Origin: Candidatus Auribacterota bacterium
Lineage (GTDB): Bacteria; Auribacterota; UBA6266
Assembly: GCA_023136205.1 (NCBI GenBank)
Contig: JAGLRQ010000079.1
Location: 1-32,000 of the forward strand
Length of the DNA stretch: 32,000 nucleotides
Direction: 5' to 3'
Shown here: positions 1,420-18,748 of the stretch, piece after piece
Layout: each line of letters starts with the position of its first letter
How positions within the stretch are numbered: the first letter of the stretch is position 1
The notes under the pieces: generated by a model
Databases searched by the model: none
What the model saw: only the letters and a program-made list of their open reading frames with translations
What the model was told of the DNA's origin: nothing
Made by a program: the position numbers and the translations under genes

Positions 1420-1507
1420 GGAGGAGTGGCAGAGTGGTCGATCGCGGCGGTCTTGAAAACCGTTGTCCTTAACAGGACCGTGGGTTCAAATCCTACCTCC
1501 TCCGCCA
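1420..1507 (+). tRNA. tRNA-Ser (anticodon UGA), type II with long variable arm, CCA encoded
   Basis: Acceptor GGAGGAG/CTCCTCC. Anticodon loop CTTGAAA (TGA). Variable-arm hairpin GTCC-TTAACA-GGAC. T arm GTGGG-TTCAAAT-CCTAC. Discriminator G followed by CCA at 1505-1507. Confidence 0.9.
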
Positions 1508-3169: not shown

Positions 3170-3301
3170 TTTTTGTTGTCCTCTAAATAAGACCATACCT
3201 TACGGAACAATAGTGACGTAAGTTATCTGGTCGAATTTATCCCGAAGCTTAAGTTAAAATTATCGCAAGAAAATTTTAGCTTGTTTAAGCAAGGGGCATT
3301 T

Positions 3302-3502
3302 CTAGTTTTCATCAATTCCTTTGACCGTAAAAACATCAGGATTTTTCATAACTGTTTCAATATATTCATCCGCCAGAATAGAAGAAATGACATCCAGAAG
3401 ATTTTGAATGCCGGGATTGTCTTCCCAGGAAAAATTTTCCTTCGGAATTTCTTTCAGGCAATCTTTCTTTTTCTCTTGCGCCAGTATGCTCTCGCTACTC
3501 AT
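3302..3502 (-). CDS. Small acidic hypothetical protein upstream of the recombinase
   Basis: 66-aa ORF co-oriented with the LSR and divergent from the XRE gene. No recognisable motif. Confidence 0.35.
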   Translation of the reverse strand: MSSESILAQEKKKDCLKEIPKENFSWEDNPGIQNLLDVISSILADEYIETVMKNPDVFTVKGIDEN

Positions 3503-3645
3503 TAGAAAACCTTGCTTTTATGACTGTTTAGGTATATATTACCAATTTAAGGCACTACTCAATGAACCGCAATACGACTATAATATACCTAATATGGCAG
3601 GTTGTGTCAAGAACTTTTTTATATTTTTAAAAGAGGCAGATTATT

Positions 3646-3849
3646 ATGGATACCAAAAAGTTTGGCAAAAAAATCAAACTGGCCCGGGTAGAACAAGACC
3701 TGAACCAAACCCAGCTTGCCCGGAAAATTGGTGTCAAACAAAAAAGTATTTCCCGTTACGAAACCGGGGCGTCTATGCCATCAATTGAAACCCTGGTTAA
3801 AATTGCTAAGGTATTGAAAAAGTCGGCAGGGTATTTTCTGGATGGATAA
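3646..3849 (+). CDS. XRE-family (HTH_3) transcriptional regulator
   Basis: LNQTQLARKIGVKQKSISRYETGASMPSIETLVKIAKVL is a classic Cro/C1 HTH. AGAGG-type RBS region upstream. Confidence 0.85.
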   Translation: MDTKKFGKKIKLARVEQDLNQTQLARKIGVKQKSISRYETGASMPSIETLVKIAKVLKKSAGYFLDG

Positions 3850-3886
3850 AAAAATATCGTTTATATTTCCGAAAAAGAGGTTCTGA

Positions 3887-5477
3887 ATGAAAAAGATATC
3901 TGAACTTAATCTAGGATTCAACGATGCAGAGAATTATCACAGGAGAGAAAACAAAGACTTATTTAATACAATTTTTATCAAGAACATTTTTTTTGATAAA
4001 ATATTACAACCAAGCACCTTTTTTCTTATCGGCGAGAAAGGCACAGGAAAAACAGCATACGCTGTTTACCTAAACAACAATGTACATTTTGATACACTAT
4101 CTGAACTTAAATACATTAGAGAAACAGATTACCAAAAATTTGTAACATTAAAAAAAAAATAAACATCTTCAGTTATCTGATTATTCTAGTATTTGGAAAG
4201 TTATTATATTGCTTCTATTGGCCAAAAGCGTTGAAAGCGATGAGTTAGATCATGGCCCCTTTGCCAAGAATAAAAGAATTAACGCATTAATGAAAGCAAT
4301 AGATGAATATTATGCAAACGCATTTGCTCCAGAAATCATCTATGCGCTAGATTTAGTAGAAAATTCAAAAACAGCTGCAGAATTAATAACCAAATACCTA
4401 AAACTAATAGGGGAGAAAACAGTTAGTACCAGTTTTCACGAATCTAAATTCCAAGTAAACCTTTTATATATCCAAAATCAATTTGAAAAGGCATTATATG
4501 ATATAAAGATTAAGAAAAATCATGTTTTATTTATAGATGGAATAGATATACGACCTGGAGTTATACCATATAAAGATTATCTAGAATGTGTGAAGGGACT
4601 AGCTAATGCGGTGTGGAGTTTAAATAATGACTTTTTCCCGAAAATCAGAGATTCAAAAGGTAGATTCCGAACAGTTTTATTGTTGCGACCTGATATTTTT
4701 AATACACTTGGTCTACAAAATCAAACTAATAAAGTGAGGGATAACTCTGTTTTTCTTGATTGGCGTACAACTTACCCTGAGTATAGCAATTCTAGCATTT
4801 TTGAATTATCAGATAAACTGTTAGCAGCACAACAAAATACGGAATTAAAATTGGGTGAAGCATGGAATTATTATTTTCCTTGGCAATCAAGACCAACTAG
4901 CCCTGAAAGATTCTTCGACCCATCATTTTTTAAATTTCTTAGACTTTCTTATTCAAGGCCCAGAGATATAGTTACAATGATCCAAATATTGCAAGAAACA
5001 ACTATCGAAAATCACAAAAAATCACAAAAAACTTTTGATGAAAAAGCCCTCGATAGCAACGATTTTCGCAATAAATATTCTGAATATTTAATGGGTGGCA
5101 TTAAGGATCAATTATCCTTTTATTACTCATCTAAAGATTATGAAATGTTTCTTAAATTCTTTAATTATTTAAACGGGAAAGGTGCATTTGATTATAAGGA
5201 ATATATCTCAGCATATAACTTATTTACTGATTATATATTACATAATCACACCGATATTCCTGAATTTGTTGAAACACCAGATACTTTTTTGCAATTTTTA
5301 TACGACACAAATATTATATGTTATATTGAAATTTTAGAAGGGAAAACCTTATTTAGATGGTGTTATAGAGAAAGGAGTCCCTCCAACATATCTCCTAAAG
5401 TAAAGCTTAATGTCCATTATAATGTCCATTATGGCCTGATGAAAGCCTTGAATCTCGGATTCAAGAAAACAGAATAA
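3887..5477 (+). pseudogene. P-loop NTPase (about 529 aa if restored), interrupted by a +1 frameshift in an A10 run
   Basis: Walker A GEKGTGKT; Walker-B-like HVLFIDGID. ORF 3887-4162 stops at TAA just after A10 (4150-4159). The frame of ORF 4209-5477 is open back to 4152. Removing one A joins them as ...FVTLKKNKHLQLSDYSSIWKVIILLLLAK... Confidence 0.65.
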
Positions 5478-5572
5478 GCAAAATTTTTCTATCAAACTAT
5501 TTTAAAAAGCTACAAATTCTTTTTAAAATACAAGGATTTTTTCACTCAATAAATTTCTGCTACAATAACCAC

Positions 5573-5773
5573 ATGAAAAAGCGAACCCTCTTAATAATCA
5601 CTTTAGTATGCTGCCTCTTAACCGGATATGCTTTTTCTTCAGATGTAACTGACCTTTCCGGGAAGAAATATTTCCCAGCAGTAAAGGAAGCCATAGATAA
5701 TTCAGAGAAATCTATATTTATGGTTGTGTATATTGTGGACTTTGATGAAAGGGTGATGAGCGACAATTATAAT
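5573..5773 (+). pseudogene. 5' fragment of a secreted PLD/Nuc-like gene, truncated by the IS
   Basis: Signal-peptide-like N-terminus followed by YFPAVKEAIDNSEKSIFMVVYIV, which resembles the first conserved block of Nuc-type PLD proteins. The reading frame runs into the IS end. Confidence 0.4.
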
Positions 5774-7398
5774 TACCAGTCTCATTGCCTCAAGAAGAAA
5801 TGTTACCATTAGTTACAACCTGCGTCTACACCAATTGGGGCAACTACTGCCTGTCCAATATTTTTATCTAAACATGAATACACTAACTGCTTTGCCATAA
5901 TCTGCCTCCACTCCTGAACTCGCCGTTGCAGAGTTCTCAATTGACCATCTGTGAATTTTCCAGGATGATCTTTCTGAAGCCGTTCAAATAACAATTTAGC
6001 AGTAGTATCAGGTTCACTTTGTAGCCATTGGAGTACATCGGGCCAAACTTTTTCGAATGGATTTTTCCGCGTTCTCCAATAATGAGGTTTTGTTATAGTT
6101 TTTTGATGTGTTGGACGCACCTCGCCAGAATGCCAGAGTTGTGGTAGTTGTGCAAGAAATTGCTCTAAGCTATTTCGACCCGGGCCAGTGGATTCATTCG
6201 GAGAAACCAAAGCAGCTAATGCGGCTTGGTCGTCTCGTATACGATGTAGTAAATACACGGGGTCAAGTTCTTTGCGCTGCAATTGGAGTTTTTCCTTTGT
6301 TGATTGCATGACAGTAGGGTTGTTACACAAACGCTCACAAGGTGTCATCGGTTTGTCATACAATCGCTTGACCTTGGATCCTTCTCGCTTCTTTTCTCGC
6401 AATTTGAAGGAAGGCTGGTAATAATTTACATAAAACCTAACCGCTCGGTATAGATGAGCAAGTGCTTGACCGGCTACGACTCCTGAAAAACGCTCATATC
6501 CAACAAACCGCCGTATCACCGCCCCATTCTTTTGTTCGATCCAAGCTTGGTCATTTGGGCAAGACGGTCGTGATCGAGTAAAGTCAATGCTATGATTTTT
6601 GCAATATGAAAGTAGCGTATCGTTGATAAAAGCACTATCGTTATCAGAGTCGATTCTTAGAATGGGAAATGGTAGTTGCTGTCGCAGTACCTCAAGTCCC
6701 TCCACCACAAGGGATTGTTCTCTCGCCAGAAGCGGAATACACTCGACCCAACCTGAATATATATCTGTTGCAACAAGGCTGTGGATAAAAGAACCGGCCA
6801 TGGATCCGCCACCGTGCACCACAAAATCGATTTCTAAATATCCTGGAGATGGTTCATTCCAATCTGCAAATGTATGGACAGGCACTTGCGCACTGACTTT
6901 ATTTGGCTTTCGGCGACGTTTTCTACGTGAACATCCCTGTTTCCGAACATCCGAAAGCAACCGGTCGAGAGTTGCTGCGCTGGCTAAAAGTAGTCGTCGC
7001 CTCACCTCTGGGTCGAGTTCTATATGACCGTGACGTTCCATCGCATCCACTAAATTAGGCAATATAGCCTTTAGTCTCTTACCGCAAATTCGATCTGCGA
7101 CTTCCCAAGTAACAATTAATGCTTCTCTCACAGCTTCGTTGTAAATGCGTCTGCTTTTGGTAGGTTTATTATCAAAGCCTGCCAGATTTCTGTTTCCAAG
7201 CAGGCGAGTAGCGTGTTTTCGGTGATATCCGGCAACCGCAACAAACTCGTCCAATATCCTCGCCTTTTCATTTTTTGGAGCCTTTATATAACGATTTCTC
7301 AGGACTTCCAAGAGTTCATTTCTTGTATGCTTACTAATTTTTTTCCCCATTTTTTGCCTCCTGATTTTGGTAACATTATCATGAGGCAACGACTGGCA
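5774..7398 (-). mobile_element. IS element (about 1.6 kb) with imperfect terminal inverted repeats
   Basis: Left end TACCAGTC..TTGCCTCA..AATGTTACCA versus the reverse complement of the right end TGCCAGTC..TTGCCTCA..AATGTTACCA. A single rve-type transposase fills the element. Its GC content is clearly higher than the surrounding island. Confidence 0.7.
5809..7350 (-). CDS. DDE (rve/integrase-core) transposase; IS family not resolved by eye (ISNCY/IS481-like)
   Basis: N-terminal HTH region (ILDEFVAVAGYHRKHATRLL). Catalytic core LEIDFV...IDSDNDSAF...NDQAWIEQKNG. A strong AGGAGG lies 6 nt upstream of the ATG at 7350; the track ORF starts at 7389. Confidence 0.85.
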   Translation of the reverse strand: MGKKISKHTRNELLEVLRNRYIKAPKNEKARILDEFVAVAGYHRKHATRLLGNRNLAGFDNKPTKSRRIYNEAVREALIVTWEVADRICGKRLKAILPNLVDAMERHGHIELDPEVRRRLLLASAATLDRLLSDVRKQGCSRRKRRRKPNKVSAQVPVHTFADWNEPSPGYLEIDFVVHGGGSMAGSFIHSLVATDIYSGWVECIPLLAREQSLVVEGLEVLRQQLPFPILRIDSDNDSAFINDTLLSYCKNHSIDFTRSRPSCPNDQAWIEQKNGAVIRRFVGYERFSGVVAGQALAHLYRAVRFYVNYYQPSFKLREKKREGSKVKRLYDKPMTPCERLCNNPTVMQSTKEKLQLQRKELDPVYLLHRIRDDQAALAALVSPNESTGPGRNSLEQFLAQLPQLWHSGEVRPTHQKTITKPHYWRTRKNPFEKVWPDVLQWLQSEPDTTAKLLFERLQKDHPGKFTDGQLRTLQRRVQEWRQIMAKQLVYSCLDKNIGQAVVAPIGVDAGCN

Positions 7399-7399
7399 C

Positions 7400-7966
7400 T
7401 TGGCAACAAAAGTTATGAGTCAAGGCGATGATGAGATTGTTATCATAGGAAGCACAAACTGGTCTAATTCAGCCTTAAGAAGAAACAACGAAACCTCTGC
7501 CCTTATAAAATCCAAGGAGCTGGCAAAATCTCTTCTTACAAACTTCTTCCATATCGCCATTGATTATGAGGCAAGTAAATCAATTCATCAAAAAGCTTCT
7601 CCCCTTGCAATATGCAGATATTTTTTGGAAGACTCCGATCTGGCAGGTAGAATGATGACTTCCCGCGATGAAAGAGCCTTTGATGTATATCTCTTGCTCC
7701 TGAAAGATAACCTTGCAGAGTCAGGGTTTAACTATAACAAGATAGCCTTGCAATTGGGTTTAGACAAGAAAATGGCTGTGAATGACTATAGAAGACAGAT
7801 CAACAAGACCTTAAGAAAGCTTGAGAGCCAATACAACTTAACGGACGAGTACGGAAAAGAGCAAGTCCCAGAGGCATTTGATATAGTTTCCCAAAAGGCG
7901 ATAGACAATCCCAGAAAAACTTATAAATATGTCGTGGGGATTTTGAGAAATGCTGCAGTCCCCTGA
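7400..7966 (+). pseudogene. 3' fragment of PLD-like gene (HKD-motif tail) with a C-terminal helical/wHTH-like extension
   Basis: DDEIVIIGSTNWSNSALRRNNETSALI matches the D(x)6GSxN...N.E half of the PLD HKD motif. No canonical HxK remains, and there is no proper start. Confidence 0.55.
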
Positions 7967-8055
7967 AATAAGTATTGTGTTTCCGAAATTCCTTTTAGAA
8001 GGCGGAGAAATGCTTGATCTATGTTAAGATGTTTCTATAAAATGAATTATGTATT

Positions 8056-8217
8056 ATGAATAACAAAAAACCCGGACTCATAGAACGATTCTTTGCCTGG
8101 TTGTTTGAGCTAGTGAATGATATTGTTGAAGATGCAACCGACTCAATAGCTGAGAAAGTAGTGGGAAAAATGAAAGAAGAGCAGTTTTTGGAAGGAAAAG
8201 ATAAGGAAAACGAATAG
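8056..8217 (+). CDS. Possible small ORF (53 aa, acidic), absent from the supplied track
   Basis: ATG 8056 to TAG 8215-8217 (MNNKKPGLIERFFAWLFELVNDIVEDATDS...), just upstream of the sce7726-like gene. No clear RBS. Confidence 0.2.
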   Translation: MNNKKPGLIERFFAWLFELVNDIVEDATDSIAEKVVGKMKEEQFLEGKDKENE

Positions 8218-8263
8218 AAAATAGGTGTCCGTCTATCATTTCACTCATTTTGTCAAAAATATC

Positions 8264-8896
8264 ATGGATAAAGCAGAGCAAATTAAAACTGAAGCTATCA
8301 AATGGTTACTTAAAGGAAATTTATCCTTTAAATCCAACAGGGATGCGATTGGGACAGAAGTCCTTTTTTCTGTAAAGAGGAGAAAGGCTGATTTACTAAT
8401 TCTTTCTACCAATACCCATGCAATTGAAATAAAGAGCGATTTCGACAAGCTTGACAAATTAAAAACGCAATTACAAGATTACTACAATTCATTTGATAAA
8501 GTATCGGTCATAACTACCCTGAGACATGTTTGCAATATTAAAAAAGTTTTATCCCCAAAGGCTGGCTTAATTATTTTTGATAATGCATCTTTCAAAGTTT
8601 TAAGAAAAGCAAAGCGACAAAAACGATTAAACAAAAGCTCATTATTAATGTTCCTGCCAAAAGATGAATTAACCAAAATATATAGGGCACCAAGAGGTCA
8701 ACGACTTTCCGTAACAGAAATACGTATGAGGATTAAGAACCAATTAAATGCGGACGAAATCAGGGAAAAAGCTTTCTCGCATTTAAAAAAACGATACAGA
8801 AAGCTTTTTGAATTATTCCTACATGATACCGCTGGCATTATAATCTGGGATGAGCTTCGGGGGTTATCTGGTAAGATCAATAAGTTGCATGGTTAA
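8264..8896 (+). CDS. sce7726/MmcB-like protein (PD-(D/E)xK nuclease fold)
   Basis: GTEVLFSVKRRKADLLILSTNTHAIEIKSDFDKLDKLKTQLQDYYNSFDKVSVITT fits the E...(R/K)ADL...EIKS.D....L..Q...Y...FD pattern of that family. Start taken at the ATG at 8264; the track starts at 8225. Confidence 0.55.
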   Translation: MDKAEQIKTEAIKWLLKGNLSFKSNRDAIGTEVLFSVKRRKADLLILSTNTHAIEIKSDFDKLDKLKTQLQDYYNSFDKVSVITTLRHVCNIKKVLSPKAGLIIFDNASFKVLRKAKRQKRLNKSSLLMFLPKDELTKIYRAPRGQRLSVTEIRMRIKNQLNADEIREKAFSHLKKRYRKLFELFLHDTAGIIIWDELRGLSGKINKLHG

Positions 8897-9975
8897 AAGA
8901 GATTATTCCTGAGAGTGATGTAAATATTCATTCTGATTGAAATCCAAAAGGAAGGTGAAAGCCCTTGCGGATATCCTTCTGATGCTGATTCAATCTGTTT
9001 AATGCCCCAACAATTTCTTACATTATTTTTTGTTCTTCTATATGCCTTTTTACCAACAATCATTTGAGCAACTCTTTTGTAAGCATCAGCGTAAGTTCTT
9101 TCTATATTACTTCTTCTTGAACGATGATAAAATATCTGGTTTTCCGTCGGAACGTCAATTCTTGGTATCCACCCATTCCCGCCGGCCTGATCACTCCTAA
9201 CTGGATGAATGGAAGCATAATCACTATAAACAATTTCCTTGTCGATGTTATCATTTACCCGAGTATAAAATTCTACTTCCTCAAGATTAAAAGTCCCATC
9301 ATCTTCGCCCCCAAATTCCGTTGGATTTTTAGGGTATGAGGTTGCAGATAAAACAAGCTTTTCAATGGAATAGTTTTCCAATTCTTTAATTAAACTTTTT
9401 GCCTTCGTTGCGTTATCTTCGGCTTTACCTTGTGTTATAAACCCGAAGTCCATAAGAACAATCAGCTTACTAATTAAGAGCGCCTCGTTAATAATATCGA
9501 GATCGTGTTTATAGTCTGGGTAATCTGCGGGGAAACGATAAACGAGAGATTCAAACTTCCCATCTAAAGCCTCTACCTGTTCTTTTAATCGTTCATTATA
9601 TTCTTTCTCATTAGAAACATCTTTATCGGATATTTGAATTGTGGGAATTATAGAAGGGAAATCTTCTTGAAGTTCTGTCACCAATGTAACCCATTTCCCA
9701 TAGCCCTTTGTAGTAGTTTGCAACCCTTCAATCTGTTCATTAATTAAATTTGGTTCTGTCGTTAAATCAAGAATAAAGCACCTATCCTCAAAAACTTCTT
9801 CCAATTTTCTCAACCTTCTGTAGATATCACCACCTTCCAAGTATTTCGTCCTTCGAGATTTTGTTAATTCCACTAACGGCGTGATCTTATCTTTCACATC
9901 ACTGGAAAGATTTTTTAAAGCTCTAAGTTCAGCGTCGGTCGTCTTAATTATTGGAATATAAGTAATATCGCTCAT
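8893..9975 (-). CDS. Beta_protein-family (PF14350-like; sce7725-like) protein
   Basis: The N-terminus YIPIIKTTDAELRALKNLSSDVKDKITPLVEL matches the family's Y.P.lK...gE..AL..L.....i.PL.E opening, and the size fits. Overlaps the ImmA gene stop by 4 nt. Confidence 0.55.
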   Translation of the reverse strand: MSDITYIPIIKTTDAELRALKNLSSDVKDKITPLVELTKSRRTKYLEGGDIYRRLRKLEEVFEDRCFILDLTTEPNLINEQIEGLQTTTKGYGKWVTLVTELQEDFPSIIPTIQISDKDVSNEKEYNERLKEQVEALDGKFESLVYRFPADYPDYKHDLDIINEALLISKLIVLMDFGFITQGKAEDNATKAKSLIKELENYSIEKLVLSATSYPKNPTEFGGEDDGTFNLEEVEFYTRVNDNIDKEIVYSDYASIHPVRSDQAGGNGWIPRIDVPTENQIFYHRSRRSNIERTYADAYKRVAQMIVGKKAYRRTKNNVRNCWGIKQIESASEGYPQGLSPSFWISIRMNIYITLRNNLF

Positions 9976-10523
9976 AAACCATGTCCTGACATTCCTAAAC
10001 TTTTTGCTCTTAGTCGCACAGTCAAAGTAGAAACCTTAAAGAATCTTGCCAAATCTTTAATTTCCTTAACCCCAGACCGTACTTGTTTTTTAAATTTATA
10101 TTCAGGCATTAATATTTCACTAGCAAATTCGTTAGCCTGCCATTCTGATCTTTTAGATTCTCCACCTCTAAAAAAAATCTTATCCTCAAAAATATGGCTT
10201 AAATGTTTATGCTTACAAAAATGACCTAATTCATGAGCAATTGTATATCTTTGCCTGTTGGGATGATGATAAGTATTCACTTGTATTCTCCATTGTCCCG
10301 ACTCTTCATCATAAAAAAGCTTGCCAGAAAGATCATCACTTAACTCAACAAACTCCACCCTAATACCAAGTTTTTTAGCTAAGTCTTCCACGTCCAAAGG
10401 GTCGCAATTAACTTCATGGGCCTTCGCGAAGCGTATCAATTTATCTGCAGTATCAATTAAAGCAATATCATTCTTATTGGCTTCTTGTCGGGTTAAAAAT
10501 ATTTTACGTCTTACTATTGCCAT
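9972..10523 (-). CDS. ImmA/IrrE-family (COG2856, peptidase M78) zinc metallopeptidase
   Basis: HEXXH motif in IAHELGHFCKH, followed by EWQANEFASEILMP, the typical ImmA/IrrE downstream block. No fused HTH. Confidence 0.85.
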   Translation of the reverse strand: MAIVRRKIFLTRQEANKNDIALIDTADKLIRFAKAHEVNCDPLDVEDLAKKLGIRVEFVELSDDLSGKLFYDEESGQWRIQVNTYHHPNRQRYTIAHELGHFCKHKHLSHIFEDKIFFRGGESKRSEWQANEFASEILMPEYKFKKQVRSGVKEIKDLARFFKVSTLTVRLRAKSLGMSGHGL

Positions 10524-11162
10524 TTAGCCCTTCCTTTTCTTTGGAAAACTCTGGCCTCTCAGGTGTTTCCTTCCCTGATGCGGCGCATCTGTATCCTTAA
10601 CTTCATCATAACTTCTTGCATTTAATGTTTTTTCGAGAAATTCAATTCTATCTTCTAGGTTAAGCACTTGCATTAATTCATCCGAATTTTTAAATTCTGT
10701 AAATTTCATATCTATAATATTTTTTAAAATAATCTGAAATGATTCACTACACTCCAAAGCCTCATTAGCCAACTCTCGAGCTTGGTGTCTTGATGAAAAA
10801 TACACATACATAAAACTAACAGCCATTAAAACACCAATAACACTTAATAATAATGTTATTATAAGTTCATAAAAATCTGTTATTTCTTGAGTATAAAATT
10901 CCAATGAATGGTTATATTTACTCTCGGTTAAAATTGCTCCTTTTTCTTGTTGCGGGCTCGGAGTTTTTATTTGTAATTCTTTGAGGTCTTTTTCATGGAC
11001 ATTTGTATTAACTGTCTGTTCTTCTTGAGTTTTTAGAGATTCTGAAGCCAAAGAAGGTGTTACATTCAGGAAATATCCCATAAACATAGCATATGTTACG
11101 CTGATCAAAAACAATACAGTGCAAAACAATATTTTCGATGAATATTTCTTTTTCTTATCCAT
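10524..11162 (-). CDS. Two-TM membrane protein, first gene of the ImmA/Beta operon
   Basis: TM segments ILFCTVLFLISVTYAMFMGYFL and LIITLLLSVIGVLMAVSFMYVYF, with a basic C-terminal tail. The stop codon abuts the ImmA start with no gap (10524/10523). Confidence 0.6.
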   Translation of the reverse strand: MDKKKKYSSKILFCTVLFLISVTYAMFMGYFLNVTPSLASESLKTQEEQTVNTNVHEKDLKELQIKTPSPQQEKGAILTESKYNHSLEFYTQEITDFYELIITLLLSVIGVLMAVSFMYVYFSSRHQARELANEALECSESFQIILKNIIDMKFTEFKNSDELMQVLNLEDRIEFLEKTLNARSYDEVKDTDAPHQGRKHLRGQSFPKKRKG

Positions 11163-11470
11163 TAAGAATCCTTAATATATGTGTTTATTGAGATTGTCAA
11201 TTATTTAACTATTATAATCACTAGTGTCTAATTAAGAAATGTTCCATTTACGTAAGGTGTTAATATATTGATAGCAACAACAAAATTTAGATTTTTCGAC
11301 TTGAAACGATTTTTGTTAAACCATTTTTTGTTCCGACGACATAGACGATAACATACACACCCTAACCATCTAATAATATTACACGCGATCTTATTTAGCA
11401 AGAAATCTTAATGGCCCCCCTTTGTTGTAACCACTTTTCTTTCATGCTAAAATATCTAAATGAGGGAATA

Positions 11471-12352
11471 ATGAGTTTTGATTTCAATCCAAATATAAGA
11501 AAGTTTTCATTTAAAAATGCTTTAATACTCGCTGAAGCATCGGAATTAGCCTACAAATCACGAGCGGAATATAAAAAGATTCTTAAAGAAAAGTGGGGAT
11601 TCTCGGATATTTACCCCCTGGATAAAAATGAGACCCAGGGTTTTGTTGCAAAGAAAGAAGATATGATATTAATTGCTTTTCGGGGGACGGAAGAAACAAA
11701 GAATGAAGATATATTTACAGATATACTGGCGTGCCAGACAAAAACAGAACTGGGAAAAGTCCATTATGGGTTTTTACGGGCCCTTAAAGCTGTCTGGAAG
11801 GACGTGCTGACAACAGTTAAGAATTATCAGGACAATAATCAGCCTGTATGGATTACAGGACATAGCCTGGGAGGGGCTTTAGCCGCCCTTGCTTCCGCCA
11901 AGCTCGCATCAATAAATGCATGTCAAAAGATTACCGGGGTATATACATTTGGACAACCAAGAGTAGGAGATAAAAACTTCAAAGAAAATTTTGAAAGGTT
12001 ACTTCCAGGCGGAACCTATAGAGTTGCCAACTTTAAGGATCCGGTTACTCTGGTGCCATTGAATATTAATTTAAAAATATGGGAAAAACGCATAATCTTT
12101 CAATACGATCATGCGGGTAAAATTATATTGTTTAATGAAGCCGGGGAAATAGCTGAATCCGGTGATTTGGTTACGCGATGGGTGTTAATTTGGGTAGCTG
12201 TTTTAGGTTTTGTAGTTGCGTTGATTGTAAAAATGTTGAGAAAAATGAAATTAGCAGAGGGATTGTTAAAATTGTTTAAAAATCCGGCAACCCCGCATGG
12301 GCTAGATCAATATAAAGAAAATATTATTAAAAATTTAGCACACAACAGGTAA
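11471..12352 (+). CDS. Class-3 lipase family alpha/beta hydrolase with C-terminal TM helix
   Basis: Nucleophile elbow GHSLGGALA; AFRGTE and FGQPRVGD blocks typical of Lipase_3. C-terminal WVLIWVAVLGFVVALIV. GAGGGA RBS before the ATG at 11471. Confidence 0.8.
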   Translation: MSFDFNPNIRKFSFKNALILAEASELAYKSRAEYKKILKEKWGFSDIYPLDKNETQGFVAKKEDMILIAFRGTEETKNEDIFTDILACQTKTELGKVHYGFLRALKAVWKDVLTTVKNYQDNNQPVWITGHSLGGALAALASAKLASINACQKITGVYTFGQPRVGDKNFKENFERLLPGGTYRVANFKDPVTLVPLNINLKIWEKRIIFQYDHAGKIILFNEAGEIAESGDLVTRWVLIWVAVLGFVVALIVKMLRKMKLAEGLLKLFKNPATPHGLDQYKENIIKNLAHNR

Positions 12353-12374
12353 AATAAGAAAAATAATACTATTT

Positions 12375-13826
12375 TTATCTTTTTTGAGCTTTCTTTTGAT
12401 ATTCTTTTTGTCTGAGGATTAGCTCATCTGATGAAAAGCATATATCGAGTTCGTCTTCGTGTTCTAATAGCTGCGAAGAAATAAGAAAGTTATACTGTCC
12501 ACCATTGTCAGACTGGTTTGCTCCAACACTGTAGATTTTCCACGAGCCGTTTTCCCCGATATATTTGAAGGGTTCATTACCTTTGCTGAATGGATCTTCA
12601 GGTATTTTATCTATATACTCAGGGGACAGTTCCAATAAAGAAGCAGGCGGGTTTCCGTTGTTTTTATCCTGGTAAAGTCTCACTGCCAGAAATAACGCTG
12701 TTCCTCTCAGGTTAGCTAAATGACGGTTGTAATATGAAAGGGCATTATTAAGTGCCGGAATGTGCAGAGACACAAGCATTCTGCCTACAGGGTCGCCGGA
12801 AAATAACATTAAAAAGGGATGCTTTGCATGCTTTTCAATATATTGCAGAATTTCTGTGTTAAAGCGGTCCGGATCATACGGACCTGATGCTATATCGATT
12901 AAATGGGAATATACTGCATCAAGGGTTTGATTTATTTTTTCAGGCGTGCTCCCAAGAGCATCTGCTACCGCTTTTCGCATAGATATTTTACCGGAATGAT
13001 TGACGTTTTGTTCTTTTAAATCAGCTATCAACAACCATCCTGCCGGGAAGGTTTGATTAACTTTAAAGATTGCGAGCTTTGTTGTATCTGTGATATTTTT
13101 GGCTGCCATACGCTCGTATCGTAATACCTCGGCAAAAGGCTCGTTTTTTTTATCAATCTGTCCAACCATTGATATCATAGAGTTTAAAACGCTTTCAGGT
13201 GCCTTATGTTGGAGAACAACCTTTCTCATGCTCTGGCATGCCACATTAGTGCATACTGTATCAACAAGGTAGTTGATAAGACATCCGCCGCGACTCAAAT
13301 GGTCTCCTACAATAAGCATTGTTTTGTAGCTGTCTAAAACAGATTGCCAGTTCCCTTTTGCAGCATCCCTTTCAGCTATAAAAGATAATACTTTAACCTT
13401 GTCACGGATGGGAGAGAGATAAGGAAGCAGTGTTTCAAAAGATATGGCGGTAGCAACCTGGCATTCCTGTATTTCTGCAGCTTTCCTGCAGAGTGCAACC
13501 TCATCAGCATTATTATCAACCCATTTTTCAAGAAGAGGATACTTTCCTTCTTCCCACTCGTATGCAACAAATCTATCATATTCTTTGCTAGCCTCTCCTA
13601 TTTCATTGTCACTGCTGTTTATTTGCCGGATATAATAAAATGCATTATCTTCCGTGATATCCTCGTCGTAAAGAATGGGGCGTGAAGGCTCAAGCTGGAC
13701 TTCAGCCAGAAGCTTGGGCCAGGGCAGCATGTTTCTGCAAACCACAAACAGAGATATAATAGATATAATTAATATTACGACAATTTTCAGAATTGTTTCT
13801 AAAATTACTTTAAGGACATTTTTCAT
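12375..13826 (-). CDS. N-terminally anchored hypothetical protein (about 480-500 aa)
   Basis: Long ORF with a TM helix (IVVILIISIISLFVV) and no recognised domain. Alternative ATG at 13883. Confidence 0.55.
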   Translation of the reverse strand: MKNVLKVILETILKIVVILIISIISLFVVCRNMLPWPKLLAEVQLEPSRPILYDEDITEDNAFYYIRQINSSDNEIGEASKEYDRFVAYEWEEGKYPLLEKWVDNNADEVALCRKAAEIQECQVATAISFETLLPYLSPIRDKVKVLSFIAERDAAKGNWQSVLDSYKTMLIVGDHLSRGGCLINYLVDTVCTNVACQSMRKVVLQHKAPESVLNSMISMVGQIDKKNEPFAEVLRYERMAAKNITDTTKLAIFKVNQTFPAGWLLIADLKEQNVNHSGKISMRKAVADALGSTPEKINQTLDAVYSHLIDIASGPYDPDRFNTEILQYIEKHAKHPFLMLFSGDPVGRMLVSLHIPALNNALSYYNRHLANLRGTALFLAVRLYQDKNNGNPPASLLELSPEYIDKIPEDPFSKGNEPFKYIGENGSWKIYSVGANQSDNGGQYNFLISSQLLEHEDELDICFSSDELILRQKEYQKKAQKR

Positions 13827-14019
13827 TTTATATAATCTGTTCTTTAAGGTGCTTAAAAAAACGAGTAGGGTAATAAATACCATATATACATGTTCGGGTC
13901 AATATGGATAGGAAGATTTGAAAGGAGATATAAAAAAAGGAAGAAAAAACAGGAGGTTTCTCACATCCCAATTTCTCTCCTAAAAAATTAAATCACTAAC
14001 CCCACCCCCAACATTTCTT

Positions 14020-14049
14020 TTGACCTGAGACATATAATTGTTTCATAAT
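14020..14049 (+). promoter_or_regulatory. Candidate sigma70-type promoter for the repeat-protein gene
   Basis: TTGACC (14020-14025), 18-nt spacer, CATAAT (14044-14049), about 45 nt upstream of the ATG at 14092. Such matches occur often in AT-rich DNA. Confidence 0.3.
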
Positions 14050-14091
14050 ATGCACAGTTGTTATAAATATTCCCGAGGACACAGGAAAAAA

Positions 14092-15093
14092 ATGAAAAAG
14101 ACTGAAAAAATAAAATATGAAATTGACCCGCATAACAGGCTCATCTTCACAAAAACAGGAAGAAAGTCAAAACTCCCCAAGTACAGAGAAGTTATTGACG
14201 GCAGAATCAAAATAGATAAAAACAACTCTTTTATCTACCATGTAAAGCAACCTCAAGATTCTAAACTTCCCCAACAGGTTAAATTTTCGGGGAAATGGTA
14301 CTTAAATAAGAATCATGATCTTGTACTTACCTTAGATAAGAAACATAAGATGTATGCCGGAGATAAGCTCACAATAAAAGGGGAGATAAAAGATGCAAAA
14401 GCAAATAAGCTAGTGTTCTCTGTTGCAGCAAAAGATATTTTGAATCAACCTCGGGAATATATCTTAAACCTTAGCGGCAGTTGGCAAGCTGACAAATATA
14501 ACCGTCTGACATTCAACGTAAAAAGAAATAAAGGCATAACAGACATATTAACTTTTAAAGGTGGCTGGAGCATTAATAAACAGAATCAGATTATATATAC
14601 TTATGAGAAAGCACATTTAAAAACCAAGAAAAGGGTAACTAAGACTATAAACTTTAAAGGGCATTGGAATATAACGGAAAAACACAGAATTTTATACGTT
14701 TTAAATAAAAAAATAGATTCACAATTTGATTTTAAGGTAAGTCTGGGAAAACCGCTTAAAAGAGGGCTTCAATATAAAATAGGGATAGGAAGTGTTCCTT
14801 CTAAGGAAAAGATAACTCTCTTTGGGGAATGGAAGGTAAATAGAAGATTAGGTGTTTTGTTTGAAATGCCGTATGAAAAAGGAATCCTTCAAAGGATTGT
14901 TTTTGGAGCAAGCTGTAAACCGGGTAAAAACAGCACTATTGAGTTTAAACTGAGAAACGAACTAGGAAAAGATCTGGGAATGGATATTAAGCTTTCAAAA
15001 AAAATACTAAAAGATCAGGGTGAGATTTTCCTGCGCGCTATCACATCAAAAAAAGAGAAGCAATTTTTAATCGGCGGTGGGTGGAGATGGTAG
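14092..15093 (+). CDS. Lys-rich protein built from at least 7 degenerate beta-hairpin-like repeats; function unknown
   Basis: Recurrent unit h-x-G-x-W-x(2,3)-[ND]K-x-N-x-L-x-F/Y-x-h: FSGKWYLNKNHDLVLTL, LSGSWQADKYNRLTFNV, FKGGWSINKQNQIIYTY, FKGHWNITEKHRILYVL, LFGEWKVNRRLGVLFEM, plus weaker copies. AGGA lies upstream of the ATG at 14092. Confidence 0.6.
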   Translation: MKKTEKIKYEIDPHNRLIFTKTGRKSKLPKYREVIDGRIKIDKNNSFIYHVKQPQDSKLPQQVKFSGKWYLNKNHDLVLTLDKKHKMYAGDKLTIKGEIKDAKANKLVFSVAAKDILNQPREYILNLSGSWQADKYNRLTFNVKRNKGITDILTFKGGWSINKQNQIIYTYEKAHLKTKKRVTKTINFKGHWNITEKHRILYVLNKKIDSQFDFKVSLGKPLKRGLQYKIGIGSVPSKEKITLFGEWKVNRRLGVLFEMPYEKGILQRIVFGASCKPGKNSTIEFKLRNELGKDLGMDIKLSKKILKDQGEIFLRAITSKKEKQFLIGGGWRW

Positions 15094-15266
15094 CAAACAA
15101 ATTCCGGTGATACAATACCCCATTACCCAAATATCTTCTCCCTCTTATTTTTGCAACAAAAAATCGTTCTACCCCGGGGGTGAAATGGTTCCGTTTATAT
15201 TAATTTTTCCCCTTGATTTCAATTTGGTTTTATTGTAAAGTCGTCCCGCAAAGAAGGAGATATAGC

Positions 15267-15785
15267 GTGGGAAATGCAGAGGCAGAAGAAAAACTAGTAG
15301 AAGCCCCTAAATTATCGGTAAAACCTATAGAGGCTCAAAAAAAAGAGCCAGAAATGGCTATAGAGGGTAAAAAGTTTTTAACACCAGTAACTGGTAAGTA
15401 TACAGATGAAATTATAGAAGAAGTGGCCAAAATATCTATAGATGAGTTAGATCAACCAGGTGGGTGGAAAAAGTTGCTTATTGCAATGTATAAAGAAAAA
15501 GCTTATGAAAACAGAACACTTCAGGACAAGGTTAATGCATTAAATATTACAAATTCTGATTTGGGTAAAAAATTAGGAGTGGCCAAAGAAAGGCTTCGGC
15601 ACACAACTGGTGTAGGAGTCGCGTTTGGGATTTTATATATAATTGCGGGAGCTATGTTAGCATATCTGGCCTCTTTGCCAGATAGTTTAATTAGGACAAT
15701 ATTATTTTGGTTGGCAATAGGAATATTTGTAGTGTGTACTGGTTATCATCTTTGGAATAGCAAAAAGCAAAAGGATGTTGAATAA
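15267..15785 (+). CDS. Hypothetical protein: charged/coiled N-terminal region plus two C-terminal TM helices
   Basis: AAGGAG lies 7 nt upstream of the GTG at 15267. TM segments GVGVAFGILYIIAGAMLAYL and ILFWLAIGIFVVCTGY. Confidence 0.5.
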   Translation: MGNAEAEEKLVEAPKLSVKPIEAQKKEPEMAIEGKKFLTPVTGKYTDEIIEEVAKISIDELDQPGGWKKLLIAMYKEKAYENRTLQDKVNALNITNSDLGKKLGVAKERLRHTTGVGVAFGILYIIAGAMLAYLASLPDSLIRTILFWLAIGIFVVCTGYHLWNSKKQKDVE

Positions 15786-15799
15786 ATGGAAAGCTTAAA

Positions 15800-16189
15800 A
15801 TGAGTGAATCAATAATTGGTGCTTTTGAGATAATTGGGATAAGAGATGCTGGTAATCTGGCAGAGGAAAGAGTATTGTTCCGAGCGATAGAGCCTGTATC
15901 ATTAGAGTATTATGTTGTTGTTAATGTGAAAACGACTAATGGAAATAAATTAATTATTCTTAATGATAAAATATTTTGGTTCCCAATTATGTCTGTTAAT
16001 CCAGGCGAGTTTGTTAGGTTATATACCAAGAGTGGTTCATATGCAAAAACAACATCGACATATGGTCAACTACCCGCCACATATCATAATTATTATTGGG
16101 ACTTAAGTGCTCCTATATGGGATGGTGTGAAGTCTAACGCAGTTACTATCTTTAAGGTGAGCAACTGGAACACCGCATATCAACCTTAG
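15800..16189 (+). CDS. Small soluble beta-rich protein, possibly lamin-tail-domain (LTD)-like
   Basis: Starts 14 nt after the previous gene. The pattern EERVLFRA...YYVVVN...FWFPIMSVNPGEFVRLYTKSG...IWDGVKSNAVTIFKVSNW resembles LTD strand order. Assigned by eye only. Confidence 0.35.
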   Translation: MSESIIGAFEIIGIRDAGNLAEERVLFRAIEPVSLEYYVVVNVKTTNGNKLIILNDKIFWFPIMSVNPGEFVRLYTKSGSYAKTTSTYGQLPATYHNYYWDLSAPIWDGVKSNAVTIFKVSNWNTAYQP

Positions 16190-16247
16190 GAAGAGAAAAA
16201 TAATTACTTCATTACTATAAAGCCAGTTGCGAAACTCGTCTTACAAG

Positions 16248-16480
16248 TTCCAGGAACACAACACCTAATCACCCAAACAACCCCTCCCTCACACAAACCT
16301 CAAAAACATCATTCCTCAACCTAATTTTCTTAATTTGAGATTTTGGTATCCAGATTTTCTCCACATTTTCAACCAAAATTGCCTTTTCAGTTTCGTGGAG
16401 TATTCTACCCTGAACCCAGATATATTTTGGTTTTGGATATAACAGTCTGTAAACATTTAAGGAAAAAGGAGTCAGCACCC
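16248..16480. repeat. Direct repeat copy 1 (about 225 bp, roughly three-quarters identical to 18253-18475)
   Basis: Nucleotide similarity spans the 72-aa gene and continues about 20 nt past its stop (TTCCAGGAACACAACACCTAATCACC versus TTCCAGCGACACAATACCCAATCACC). Confidence 0.7.
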
Positions 16481-16487
16481 TTTTCAA
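16269..16487 (-). CDS. Small conserved hypothetical protein, paralog A
   Basis: About 75% identical by eye to ORF 18274-18477 (YIWVQxRILHETxKAILVENVEKxWIxKSQIxKIRLRNxVFEVxVREG). Confidence 0.6.
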   Translation of the reverse strand: MKRVLTPFSLNVYRLLYPKPKYIWVQGRILHETEKAILVENVEKIWIPKSQIKKIRLRNDVFEVCVREGLFG

Positions 16488-16624
16488 ACTATTAGTAATT
16501 TGCTTACCAATTTTATAAGTTCATGTTTTTCTGCATATTTTGTTCAAATGGGCGAGAATTAAACATAAAAAAAGCGATGATTTATTCTCTTCGCTTTTGT
16601 TAGACAGAAATTAGCCTTGTATAG

Positions 16625-16810
16625 TTATGCCTGTAAGCTCTTTTTTTCTATTGAGTCGCGGAACTTTTGAAAGTTAATTCCATAATCGTAATGTTCTAAA
16701 TCTAGATGATCCCTATTAATCCACAAACAATCTCCCCATACACACCTTTCAACACCAGTGAAGGAATCATACTCTACACCAAATCTTTTACATTTTGGAC
16801 ATCTTTTCAT
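16625..16810 (-). CDS. Small zinc-ribbon protein (CPKC...C..C)
   Basis: MKRCPKCKRFG...ERCVWGDC; 61 aa; lies 54 nt downstream of the deaminase gene on the same strand. Confidence 0.45.
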   Translation of the reverse strand: MKRCPKCKRFGVEYDSFTGVERCVWGDCLWINRDHLDLEHYDYGINFQKFRDSIEKKSLQA

Positions 16811-16864
16811 TCCTTCTCCTATAATTAATTATACGTATACAACTATAATAAGCAAGTTTTTTAA

Positions 16865-18145
16865 CTATAAATTTCTTTTAAAAAACCTATGAAATGATTT
16901 TGTTGTAACCCCTTCATATTTCTTAAGGTCCACATTGTTGGTTTTAAACATATCAATAGCTAGAGATTCTTCCATTGGATATGCTTCTAAATATACGACT
17001 TGAATAATACCCGAAGCGATAATTTTTTTACAGCATAACATACAGGGGAAAGCAGAAGTATATAATTTTGTTCCATGCAATGATGTGCTTCCCAATCTGG
17101 CAGCTTGAATAATTGCTGCTTCTTCAGCATGTACAGCCCTGCAAACACTCAATAATTTCCCAGGAAAAACTTCGTTTTTAAAACCACAATCTACACATAA
17201 CTTGCTATTCTTTTCTAATTTATGCCCACATTTTCTACAATATATATTATTTTCTAAAAACTCTTTCTTTATTTTGGCCCGATAACATTTTTCAGGGTAT
17301 TTTTTCTTACAATCTTCGTCTTCGTAAGGGACATTATTGCAACCGGTGGCAATTACATATCCTATAGCGCCCTTCAATTTTTCTTTATCAAGTTCTTTTT
17401 TAAAAGAGTAAGTATCGCGAACTATAACTGCCCCTACTTGCCTTTTGGAACATCTTGATTGCAAAGCTACACTGCAGGCTTGGTGCATATACGCCTCATT
17501 AGGGTAAGGAGGCCTACTCTCAGAATTTTCTATGAGATCATAAAAATCGGATAATCTCTGTGCATAACTATCAATAATCTTACCATTTTTTGTCCCATCA
17601 CAATCAAAAAAATCTTCTTCTGCATTAACAGAAATATCTGCCATTTCCATGCATTTTTTTACTTGTTGCCCATGTAGATTTTTCGTATCCCCGGCGTCCC
17701 GTTTTTCAATCTCACCAAACTCGTCTTTATGTTTAAACAAATCTTTTAATCTATCCCATCTTTTGTCATGGGATGCATCAATAGATAATAAAACAAAATG
17801 TTTTTTAAATTTTCTTTGAAAAGTTTCAATTTCATGTGGATTTCTGAAACATTCAATTACAGCTTTTTTGGGCTTTCTTTTGCATATTTCTTCAACTATT
17901 GGAGCTACAGTTTCGGGGTTTTCAGGGTTCTTTTTTCTTAATTCATCACCTAAATCTTGTAAAATCATTCTTTTTTTATTGGGTTGTTTCTTATCAAAAT
18001 CTTTGACTTTTTTTTTCGCTTTTTCTTTCAACAATGCTGAAATACTAAAATATTCCATTCCTTTGGTATTATGAAAGAACTTACTGGTTTCAGTGCAACC
18101 AGATCCAAATCTTCCGGTTAATCCAATTATCATTGTATCTTTCAT
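16865..18145 (-). CDS. Nucleotide-kinase-like P-loop domain fused to a CMP/dCMP-type zinc deaminase (architecture of defensive dCTP deaminases)
   Basis: N-terminal GLTGRFGSGCT P-loop. C-terminal SKRQVGAVIV...GCNN...HAEEAAI...PCMLCCKKI deaminase motifs. A CxxC...CxxC insert (CRKCGHKLEKNSKLCVDCG) lies before HAE. Confidence 0.8.
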   Translation of the reverse strand: MKDTMIIGLTGRFGSGCTETSKFFHNTKGMEYFSISALLKEKAKKKVKDFDKKQPNKKRMILQDLGDELRKKNPENPETVAPIVEEICKRKPKKAVIECFRNPHEIETFQRKFKKHFVLLSIDASHDKRWDRLKDLFKHKDEFGEIEKRDAGDTKNLHGQQVKKCMEMADISVNAEEDFFDCDGTKNGKIIDSYAQRLSDFYDLIENSESRPPYPNEAYMHQACSVALQSRCSKRQVGAVIVRDTYSFKKELDKEKLKGAIGYVIATGCNNVPYEDEDCKKKYPEKCYRAKIKKEFLENNIYCRKCGHKLEKNSKLCVDCGFKNEVFPGKLLSVCRAVHAEEAAIIQAARLGSTSLHGTKLYTSAFPCMLCCKKIIASGIIQVVYLEAYPMEESLAIDMFKTNNVDLKKYEGVTTKSFHRFFKRNL

Positions 18146-18252
18146 TTATTTATATTTATTTTCAAAATAGAGATGGAGACTATTCTCCCTTAACATCCAA
18201 ATCAAGGATTACACTATCAAATTAAATGTGGTTTTGCAAGGTGTTGTTGTAA

Positions 18253-18475
18253 TTCCAGCGACACAATACCCAATCACCAAAACTTTCCCTCCCGAACATA
18301 AACCTCAAAAACACCATTCCTCAGCCTAATTTTCCGGATTTGCGATTTCGATATCCAGGTCTTCTCTACATTTTCAACTAAAATAGCTTTATCGGTTTCA
18401 TGCAAGATACGGATTTGAACCCAAATATACCCGGGTTTTGAGTGTAACAGCCTGTAAATACTAAAGGGTCTAAAC
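18253..18475. repeat. Direct repeat copy 2 (partner of 16248-16480)
   Basis: See copy 1. The two copies are offset by about 2005 bp and bracket the deaminase and Zn-ribbon genes. Confidence 0.7.
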
Positions 18476-18477
18476 AT
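18274..18477 (-). CDS. Small conserved hypothetical protein, paralog B
   Basis: Paralog of 16269-16487. Starts 4 nt after the stop of the HTH ORF. Confidence 0.6.
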   Translation of the reverse strand: MFRPFSIYRLLHSKPGYIWVQIRILHETDKAILVENVEKTWISKSQIRKIRLRNGVFEVYVREGKFW

Positions 18478-18481
18478 AAGC

Positions 18482-18679
18482 TTACACCCCCTTCCACTTA
18501 ATAGCGCGTTGGACTGTTTTACTGCTCACTCTCAGGGATTTGGCTATTTGGGTGCAGGTCATGCCCAGAAGATGTAATTCTGTGGCTTTCTGGGCTATTT
18601 TACGGTATAAAGGAAAGGCTTTAACAGGGAGAATTTTAATACAGGCAGAGATTTCGGAAAAAGTTCGAATTGGTTGCAA
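18482..18679 (-). CDS. HTH module (resolvase/invertase-type); probably the detached 3' segment of the recombinase gene
   Basis: LLGMTCTQIAKSLRVSSKTVQRAIKW is HTH_7-like. There is no ATG; the first codon (TTG) sits exactly at the island-end inverted arm. It is in frame with the LSR once the ends are joined. Confidence 0.5.
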   Translation of the reverse strand: MQPIRTFSEISACIKILPVKAFPLYRKIAQKATELHLLGMTCTQIAKSLRVSSKTVQRAIKWKGV

Positions 18680-18712
18680 CCGGGTCCGCCATTTTAACCA
18701 CTTCGAACCTTT
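18663..18712. repeat. attR region: inverted arm GTTCGAATTGGTTGCAA (18663-18679) plus right copy of direct repeat (18685-18712)
   Basis: 18663-18679 is the exact reverse complement of 1508-1524. 18685-18712 (TCCGCCATTTTAACCACTTCGAACCTTT) matches attL at 25 of 28 positions. Confidence 0.7.
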
Positions 18713-18748
18713 ATTTCGGCAGTATTAAAAAAATGGGGACACATTGGG

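Follow-up and report, generated by a model that had tools for sequence, protein, structure and literature searches.

The right boundary of a 17.2-kb defence island is very probably an attachment site of a large serine recombinase whose reading frame crosses its own attP

Attachment sites inside integrase genes are known from tyrosine recombinases. In Myxococcus phage Mx8 (intP/intX) and Sulfolobus SSV1 (int), attP lies within the integrase gene; integration changes or splits the integrase frame, and the free and integrated forms encode different proteins. At the locus described here, it is the frame of a large serine recombinase (LSR) that crosses its own attP. A limited literature search returned no description of an LSR with this arrangement.

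Among LSRs, the integrase of Listeria phage A118 (LI integrase) offers a close comparison. Its zinc-ribbon-domain (ZD) motif occupies positions 16-24 of the attP half-site and 11-19 of the attB half-site, and substitution is tolerated at attP-19/attB-14 (Rutherford et al. 2013, PMC3783163). Our locus is similar in having a three-domain LSR, a palindromic attP of ~50 bp with a non-palindromic central dinucleotide, and a putative 9-bp ZD motif in the same two registers. It differs in that the target is the 3' end of a tRNA-Ser gene, the ZD motif is T-loop sequence and is found in only one attB half-site, and attP lies inside the integrase frame. SCC and SCCmec, which are inserted by Ccr LSRs (PMC11470126), share with our family LSR insertion at the 3' end of a conserved gene and tandem arrays that include recombinase-less, defence-rich cassettes. 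Their target is rlmH rather than a tRNA gene, whereas the cassettes here have in common a helix-turn-helix (HTH) tail and a small-protein module overlapping the P half-site, and our locus retains only a ~30-bp relic of a neighbouring unit. Tycheposons (bioRxiv 10.1101/2020.12.28.424599) and Islander islands (PMC4383910) also integrate at tRNA 3' ends and restore the gene, with repeated integrations pushing older elements inward and degenerate remnants staying behind. However, these mostly involve tyrosine integrases and longer tRNA duplications, while here the enzyme is an LSR and the duplication is 5-7 bases.

The locus was found in a stretch of 32,000 nucleotides (the window). The interval 18,663-18,708 is very probably the attR of a 17.2-kb defence island that an LSR has integrated at the 3' end of tRNA-Ser(TGA) (Table 1). 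The LSR has Pfam matches to Resolvase (PF00239, 8.7e-29), Recombinase (PF07508, 8.7e-24), and Zn_ribbon_recom (PF13408, 4e-9). Its catalytic domain, to which similarity with solved LSRs is confined, matches that of TP901-1 integrase (4.5e-14), with YARYSS aligned to YTRVST. The zinc ribbon contains four cysteines (CNSC...GC...TC) and is followed by ~180 residues. The protein P0121 is 100% identical to this LSR, and the host is recorded as a Candidatus Aureabacteria MAG. No phage-integrase (tyrosine) domain was found among the open reading frames (ORFs) scanned. ARAGORN and Rfam each call one tRNA in the window and no second tRNA or known RNA in the P arm, and we rejected the idea that the P arm is itself such an RNA.

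Table 1. Features of the island and its attachment sites (window coordinates)
Feature	Position	Strand	Remarks
tRNA-Ser(TGA)	1420..1507	+	ARAGORN; Rfam tRNA 51.8 bits; 3' part is the B half-site of attB/attL
attL	1478..1528	+	B half-site 1478-1500, shared core TCCGCCA 1501-1507, P' arm 1508-1528
ZD-type 9-mer of tRNA half-site (T-stem/loop)	1483-1491		GGTTCAAAT; half-site positions 19-11
LSR gene	1493..3169	-	558 aa from ATG 3169; Pfam domains
Predicted crossover dinucleotide TC	attL 1501..1502, attR 18685..18686	+	arm symmetry centre and position -1 covariation
ZD-type 9-mer of P' half-site			GGTTCGAAT; half-site positions 24-16
Integrated island	1508..18691	.	17,184 bp; bounded by attL and attR; missing from the L211 empty site
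67-aa conserved small-protein gene	18274..18477	-	next to the tail in family members, at their P end; follows the tail
Tail frame	18485..18691	-	69 codons, WRTRLQPIRTF...HTH...KWKGV; starts in core and P arm
attR, element-derived part	18659..18691	+	P arm 18659-18679, inner spacer CCGGG 18680-18684, core TCCGCCA 18685-18691
ZD-type 9-mer of P half-site, in attR P arm	18662-18670		AGTTCGAAT; half-site positions 24-16
Relic of the P' arm and 3'-terminal LSR codons of an older family member	18692..18721	+	14/17 to arm; P-type register 8/9

Using a search for RecQ homologues, we recovered an empty site (L211) in which RecQ (97% identical), 169 bp, tRNA-Ser, PilZ, and VanZ follow one another with no island in between; this sets the island limits at 1508 and 18,691. 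Thus, as in other tRNA-targeting islands, insertion is at the tRNA 3' end, the element restores the gene, and relatives carry the empty site. The same tRNA is occupied by related LSR elements in three further genomes (L013, where the LSR is 94% identical, L034, and L057), and the attL junction recurs identically in L001-L003. The first-pass annotation had proposed a genuine LSR att site, a proposal that is borne out by the LSR adjoining attL, the empty site in a 97%-related strain, and the homologous elements at the same tRNA. Exact-protein look-ups of PilZ and RecQ yielded only occupied or identical sites. Scanning the genome collection with the tRNA 3' 22-mer returned mostly unrelated phyla and flanks, with related elements only in L013, L034, and L057, and patterns for core plus P' and P plus core found no viral or circular copy in IMG/VR.

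The tRNA-Ser site also varies within the community. In contigs of a strain with identical PilZ (L005 1356-1422, L004, and L090; ERZ23498475, SRR13892603), another LSR allele comes after the tRNA (sequence TTTTAACCAATTCAAACC..., C-terminus LAILDESHKGLNWLKWRRR before its stop), and a further contig breaks at the tRNA 3' end. As both a different allele and a contig break occur at this tRNA, the site is polymorphic.

The element is an anti-phage defence island. Its cargo includes an IS (rve), Lipase_3, a defence gene for a dCTP deaminase (PADLOC E = 4e-84), and a PD-Lambda-2-like beta protein paired with an M78 peptidase. The beta protein (Beta_protein, PD-Lambda-2_C-like), the M78/IrrE peptidase (capP/RmrA-like), and a 212-aa ORF without assignment lie together at 8896-11162 and are likely a defence operon. 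The transposase (5809-7389) adjoins an ORF (7400-7966) whose match to a PLD-like domain is confined to the C-terminal portion of that domain; the IS has probably interrupted this gene. Two ORFs, of 91 aa (3887-4162) and 422 aa (4209-5477), match the first and second parts of phrog_13260 (497 positions), with a weak ORC-CDC6-like match. They look like pieces of one split or frameshifted gene, perhaps one with a replication-initiator-like role in the element. A 215-nt direct repeat (16248-16462 and 18253-18467; 77% identity; repeat D1) is a diverged second copy of the conserved small-protein gene without a tail or P site. This repeat suggests a composite island, with a dCTP-deaminase unit (~16.5-18.7 kb) that was formerly a separate cassette. 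The 67-aa small protein itself has 57 tblastn matches in related loci, a homologue in L129, and a match to phrog_8389 (1e-4).

The anatomy of the site can be read directly from the two junctions. The 17-mer GTTCGAATTGGTTGCAA (18663-18679) is the exact reverse complement of TTGCAACCAATTCGAAC (1508-1524), which comes immediately 3' of the tRNA-Ser CCA. When 18663-18691 is joined to 1508-1524, the result is arm, CCGGGTCCGCCA, arm, with a 12-bp spacer and a symmetry centre between T18685 and C18686 (equivalent to 1501/1502). An attP of 46 bp with perfect 17-bp inverted arms around a central TC had been proposed at first pass, and its coordinates and arithmetic hold; T18685 is indeed the first base identical between both junctions. 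The inverted arms in fact reach 21 nt (1508-1528 versus 18659-18679, 20/21 complementary; repeat I12). The reconstructed site thus has what is expected of an attP, inverted half-sites (arms 17/17, or 20/21) over ~50 bp flanking a non-palindromic central dinucleotide. The predicted attP junction is GGTTGCAACCGGGTCCGCCATTGCAACC, and excision would leave the tRNA joined to TTTTAACCACTTCG. Each arm (18662-18680 and 1507-1525) contains two near-copies of one 9-mer at 10-bp spacing, GGTTCGAAT at positions 16-24 and GGTTGCAAT at 6-14 (7/9).

At three or fewer mismatches, the window contains three copies of the arm, compared to 0.15 expected, and none of 100 shuffled sequences gave three. The third copy (18692-18708) is imperfect (14/17) and lies directly right of the core at the right junction, so that attR, at 18663-18708, is an imperfect palindrome already in place. 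The direct repeat between attL and attR is 28 nt at 25/28 (repeat D9) rather than 9 nt. The 17-bp arm was not found as a dispersed repeat within the 32-kb window. In metagenomes, it is kept as the end of related elements in at least 120 contigs, and in fact more, among the matches listed.

The right half of attR does not resemble the empty site. After the tRNA, L211 has TTTTAAAAAACATAGTATTCCTCGTGGATACTATGTTTTTT, a terminator hairpin; at that place the window reads TTTTAACCACTTCGAACCTTTATTTC. Between tRNA and RecQ, the spacer measures 57 bp in the window and 169 bp in L211, and the two are alike only in the TTTTAA after the tRNA and in the last ~35 bp. When read in the LSR frame on the minus strand, the right flank gives RNKGSKWLK, comparable to KGSNWLQ in the present LSR and INKDSNWLH in L114. 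Similar relics are present in L187 and L114. We therefore interpret 18692-18721 as a ~30-bp scar of the LSR 3' end and P' arm of an older family member, which stands in place of the native B' half-site. Since this half is a relic and L211 has a hairpin there, the attB proposed in the first-pass annotation (1480-1507 joined to 18692-18712) is not the natural one. The only sequence common to the reconstructed attP and the native attB of L211 is TCCGCCATT. A P-type right half at attR implies either that the element entered an attL-like target, which is disfavoured by the coiled-coil directionality model, or that an older element was later deleted.

Two other explanations of the arms have to be weighed. 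One is that 18692-18712 (TTTTAACCACTTCGAACC after the tRNA) is the native right half of attB, making attB a hybrid of one B-type and one P-type half. The sequence does lie directly between the core and RecQ and matches the arm at 14/17 in the P register. However, the closest empty site has TTTTAAAAAACATAGTATTCC there, the start of the terminator hairpin; its 169-bp spacer is unrelated apart from the last ~35 bp; the flank in the window runs on into LSR-like codons; and P'-type right flanks occur at only ~25% of 113 distinct family junctions, the others being at chance level. Together these make a native right half very improbable. The other explanation, that the inverted arms are a product of coding or hairpin constraint only and have no role in recombination, is harder still to credit. 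Both arms are indeed coding (KGSNWLQ for P', LQPIRT for P), but they are complementary as DNA while the encoded peptides are unrelated, they coincide exactly with the island boundaries set by the empty site, and the arm persists in relics after gene loss. Moreover, in a mini-element (L106) whose arms match at 17/17, positions +7 and -7 have changed jointly to G/C where the window has A/T.

The 9-mer at the outer end of both element arms is GGTTCGAAT (positions 16-24), and the T-arm of the tRNA carries its counterpart, GGTTCAAAT, at positions 11-19. In an offset scan, the P and P' arms and the relic scored 8-9/9 only at position 16 (8/9 for the relic), and the tRNA half scored 8/9 only at position 11. 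The sole difference between the element arm and the tRNA half falls at attP-19/attB-14, and the host tRNA of L213 carries GGTTCGAAT itself (9/9). The distances reported at first pass were accurate: GTTCGAA is 22 bp from TC in both P (T18685) and P' (C1502), and GTTCAAA (1484-1490) begins 17 bp from T1501. The 5-bp ZD shift that had been proposed alongside them agrees with the published registers (PMC3783163), and the 9-mer fits those positions, with 9/9 in L213 and recurrence in a second flavour of the family. In a MAFFT alignment of that flavour, the tRNA rows take a 5-nt gap to bring ..TTGAAC into line with ..CAGAAC/CCGAAC of the element half-sites, and the 5-bp shift thus recurs independently. 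As GTTCRAA is the universal tRNA T-loop sequence, its presence in the tRNA alone proves nothing; the evidence for a shift is that the 9-mer of the element arms is the same as that of the tRNA at a 5-bp offset. Since rebuilding the tRNA does not require a motif on the P side, recognition by the protein is the best explanation for the motif there, and the ZD would be expected to contact it in these registers. The native right half-site B' of L211 contains no ZD-like motif in either register of the offset scan. Thus, attB would be strongly asymmetric, unlike that of LI integrase.

The centre of the site was compared across the family. Among the metagenome matches listed, the consensus spacer is CCGCG-TC-CGCCA, in which GCG and CGC mirror each other about TC. 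A sister flavour has AC at the centre. The LSRs P0193 and P0181 adjoin tRNA-Ser genes ending ..CCCCC-AC-CGCCA (L218, L220), while P0163 (L219), which is 95% identical, is joined to a P-type half-site ending ..GAAC-AC-CGCCA, as is P0134 (L216; ..AAC-AC-CGCCA). Position -1 therefore changes together in the tRNA and the element half-site, being T/T in the window flavour and A/A in the sister flavour. In 9 of 9 tail-class junctions found by protein similarity alone, T is at position -1; A is present there at the C-termini of all eight class-2 LSRs. We rejected the class-2 A as evidence against TC, because the tRNA partner also has A, and the apparent counter-evidence became support. TC is supported as the crossover dinucleotide, although not proven, with the exact cleavage position deduced from these sequences. 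The first-pass annotation had stated that the motif pattern pins the dinucleotide; symmetry and position -1 covariation uphold the choice of TC, but "pins" is too strong.

In the class-2 contigs, the LSRs read on for only 12-23 residues after WR (..VRTFY..), and no HTH tail accompanies the element-side half-site of L216/L217 and L219 (..GGTTCGGACTTCGTCCGCTAAAC-AC-CGCCA). Just past this half-site, two contigs of different sample origin stop at one and the same base.

Two further readings concern the motif and the crossover. It is conceivable, though we consider it improbable, that the GTTCRAA likeness is historical, with the P half-site derived from a captured tRNA 3' fragment plus 5 bp and the motif not read by the ZD. 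The P arm and core do resemble a tRNA 3' half with five extra bases, and in L215 an LSR element lies beside a fragment that resembles a tRNA 3' end, GGGTTCGAATCCCACCGCGTCCGCCA, and has inner bases identical to the family P consensus. But the motif is on the P side, where restoring the tRNA does not need it, and is mirrored in P'; its positions agree with experimentally defined ZD registers (PMC3783163); and the shift recurs in a flavour with other arm sequences. An origin from a tRNA fragment and recognition by the ZD are not mutually exclusive. Somewhat less probable again is exchange at another dinucleotide of the shared TCCGCCATT block, such as CC or CG, in which case T at position -1 would be shared by chance or through a preference of the recombinase domain. 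Comparing attL, attR, and the empty site limits the crossover only to the 9-bp shared block, and degenerate array junctions (TCCGCTA, TCCGCCC, TCCGATA) narrow it at best to -1 to +3. Moreover, the match at position -1 in two flavours could be chance (about 1/16). Against another dinucleotide are the arm symmetry centre, which falls exactly between T and C, the symmetry of the GCG-TC-CGC family spacer, and the A shared at -1 by tRNA and element half-site in the sister flavour.

The fragment in L215 (2810-2860) adjoins the LSR element at a place where no tRNA gene is called, and its T-loop motif is in the attB-type register.

The gene-site arrangement is unusual, as the site lies inside coding sequence. 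At attL, the P' arm encodes KGSNWLQ, the core WR, and the tRNA acceptor stem RR and a stop (TAG, 1493-1495), so that the integrated LSR ends in NWLQWRRR. The frame of the LSR also runs through attL in more than 100 homologues; in most of the best 120, the C-terminus reads NW(L/Y)(Q/H)WR followed by the reverse complement of a tRNA, as in WRRGRDSNPR. The predicted crossover coincides with the codon boundary after WR. Over the reconstructed attP, the LSR and the tail, which is in frame with it, form an open frame of 632 codons; counted from the core W, the tail has 69 codons, with 66 residues beyond the shared WR. Natural fusions of LSR and tail were found as single ORFs in P0124 (625 aa, L212) and P0180. 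The tail holds a helix-turn-helix (HTH_23, 1.6e-5), is conserved at ~130 sites with 50-69% identity, is exactly 69 codons long in 61 of 119 distinct copies, and has a pN/pS of 0.32 outside the arm. It is a real coding sequence. As our search pattern fixed most bases of the first 10 tail codons, their conservation is unusable as evidence. A start-like codon is present at tail codon 5 in 64% of copies, and 22% have no start in the first 40 codons. We also considered whether in-frame genes precede the tails in arrays and rejected this, as the sequences there are short, low-complexity open frames.

The family was defined by a metagenome scan for the P arm and core, which yielded the contigs with tail and arm mentioned above. 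As the pattern fixed 19 of 29 bases, conservation at those bases is not independent evidence. Among the matches listed, many contigs carry two or three units of tail, P, and core in direct order, and 17 units are complete, measuring 1.2-6.7 kb, all but two of them <4 kb; these two probably also contain chromosomal or IS genes. The cargo of the units includes Gp49/HTH and ParE toxin-antitoxin (TA) genes, GNAT, HNH, Fic, Schlafen-AlbA2, and YhcG. At the level of the family, therefore, successive units share the same att core and many are without a recombinase, as in SCC. Within the window, the traces of an array are limited to the relic arm and the duplicated small gene. Both the arrays in the family and the P-type relic call strict LSR directionality into question. 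No directionality factor (RDF), which would reverse attP x attB recombination, was recognised.

Arrays of LSR-less units of 1.2-2.7 kb are seen in L129 (1873-7638) and also in L124, L207, L209, L166, and L150. Each of these units ends in tail, P arm, and core, and an RT-like ORF is also among their cargo.

An att site inside the recombinase gene might act as a switch, a speculative reading that we regard as doubtful. When the element is free or away from the tRNA, the LSR would carry the 66-residue HTH tail, and when integrated at the tRNA it would lack it; LSR-less cassettes of tail plus P would be captured in trans and stacked at tRNA-Ser. However, the sister AC flavour reads through only briefly and into no HTH, and a possible start codon is present within the tail itself in 64% of copies. 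If the switch did exist, it would provide built-in control of direction or expression. Captured LSR-less TA/defence cassettes would keep only the tail and P end, with a decayed P' arm also kept in a minority of captured units, and the system would in effect be a serine-recombinase counterpart of the integron.

Taken as a whole, the locus fits the following scheme. The attP of the free element would be a palindrome of ~48-54 bp, each arm presenting GGTTCGAAT at positions 16-24 to the ZD and the near-copy GGTTGCAAT at 6-14 to the recombinase domain. In attB, the T-stem/loop of the tRNA would supply GGTTCAAAT, the same 9-mer 5 bp nearer the centre (11-19). Cleavage and strand exchange would take place at TC in the centre. 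The five bases at the tRNA 3' end (CGCCA) would come from the element, which would leave the tRNA intact. At the tRNA, the LSR would terminate shortly after WR, and across attP it would read on into the HTH tail. The mechanism is the known one of serine integrases; the arrangement of gene and site is a new variant of it. Findings beyond the first-pass annotation are that attP lies within the LSR frame, that the tail is conserved, that the family forms arrays, and that the central dinucleotide has two flavours.

For annotation, our results mean that relic half-sites at the right boundary of an island can mimic attP, and attB should therefore be taken from empty sites rather than from reconstruction out of attR. 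The arrays, and an attP that the LSR frame crosses, hint at a logic of regulation and capture that our limited literature search did not find described for serine integrases. The tRNA-Ser-directed integrases could serve as tools. For a single LSR clade with two central-dinucleotide flavours, the family provides natural attP, attB, and hybrid half-sites numbering in the hundreds. With a putative attB ZD motif that is the tRNA T-loop, it is also a natural system in which to test the ZD-shift model of serine-integrase directionality.
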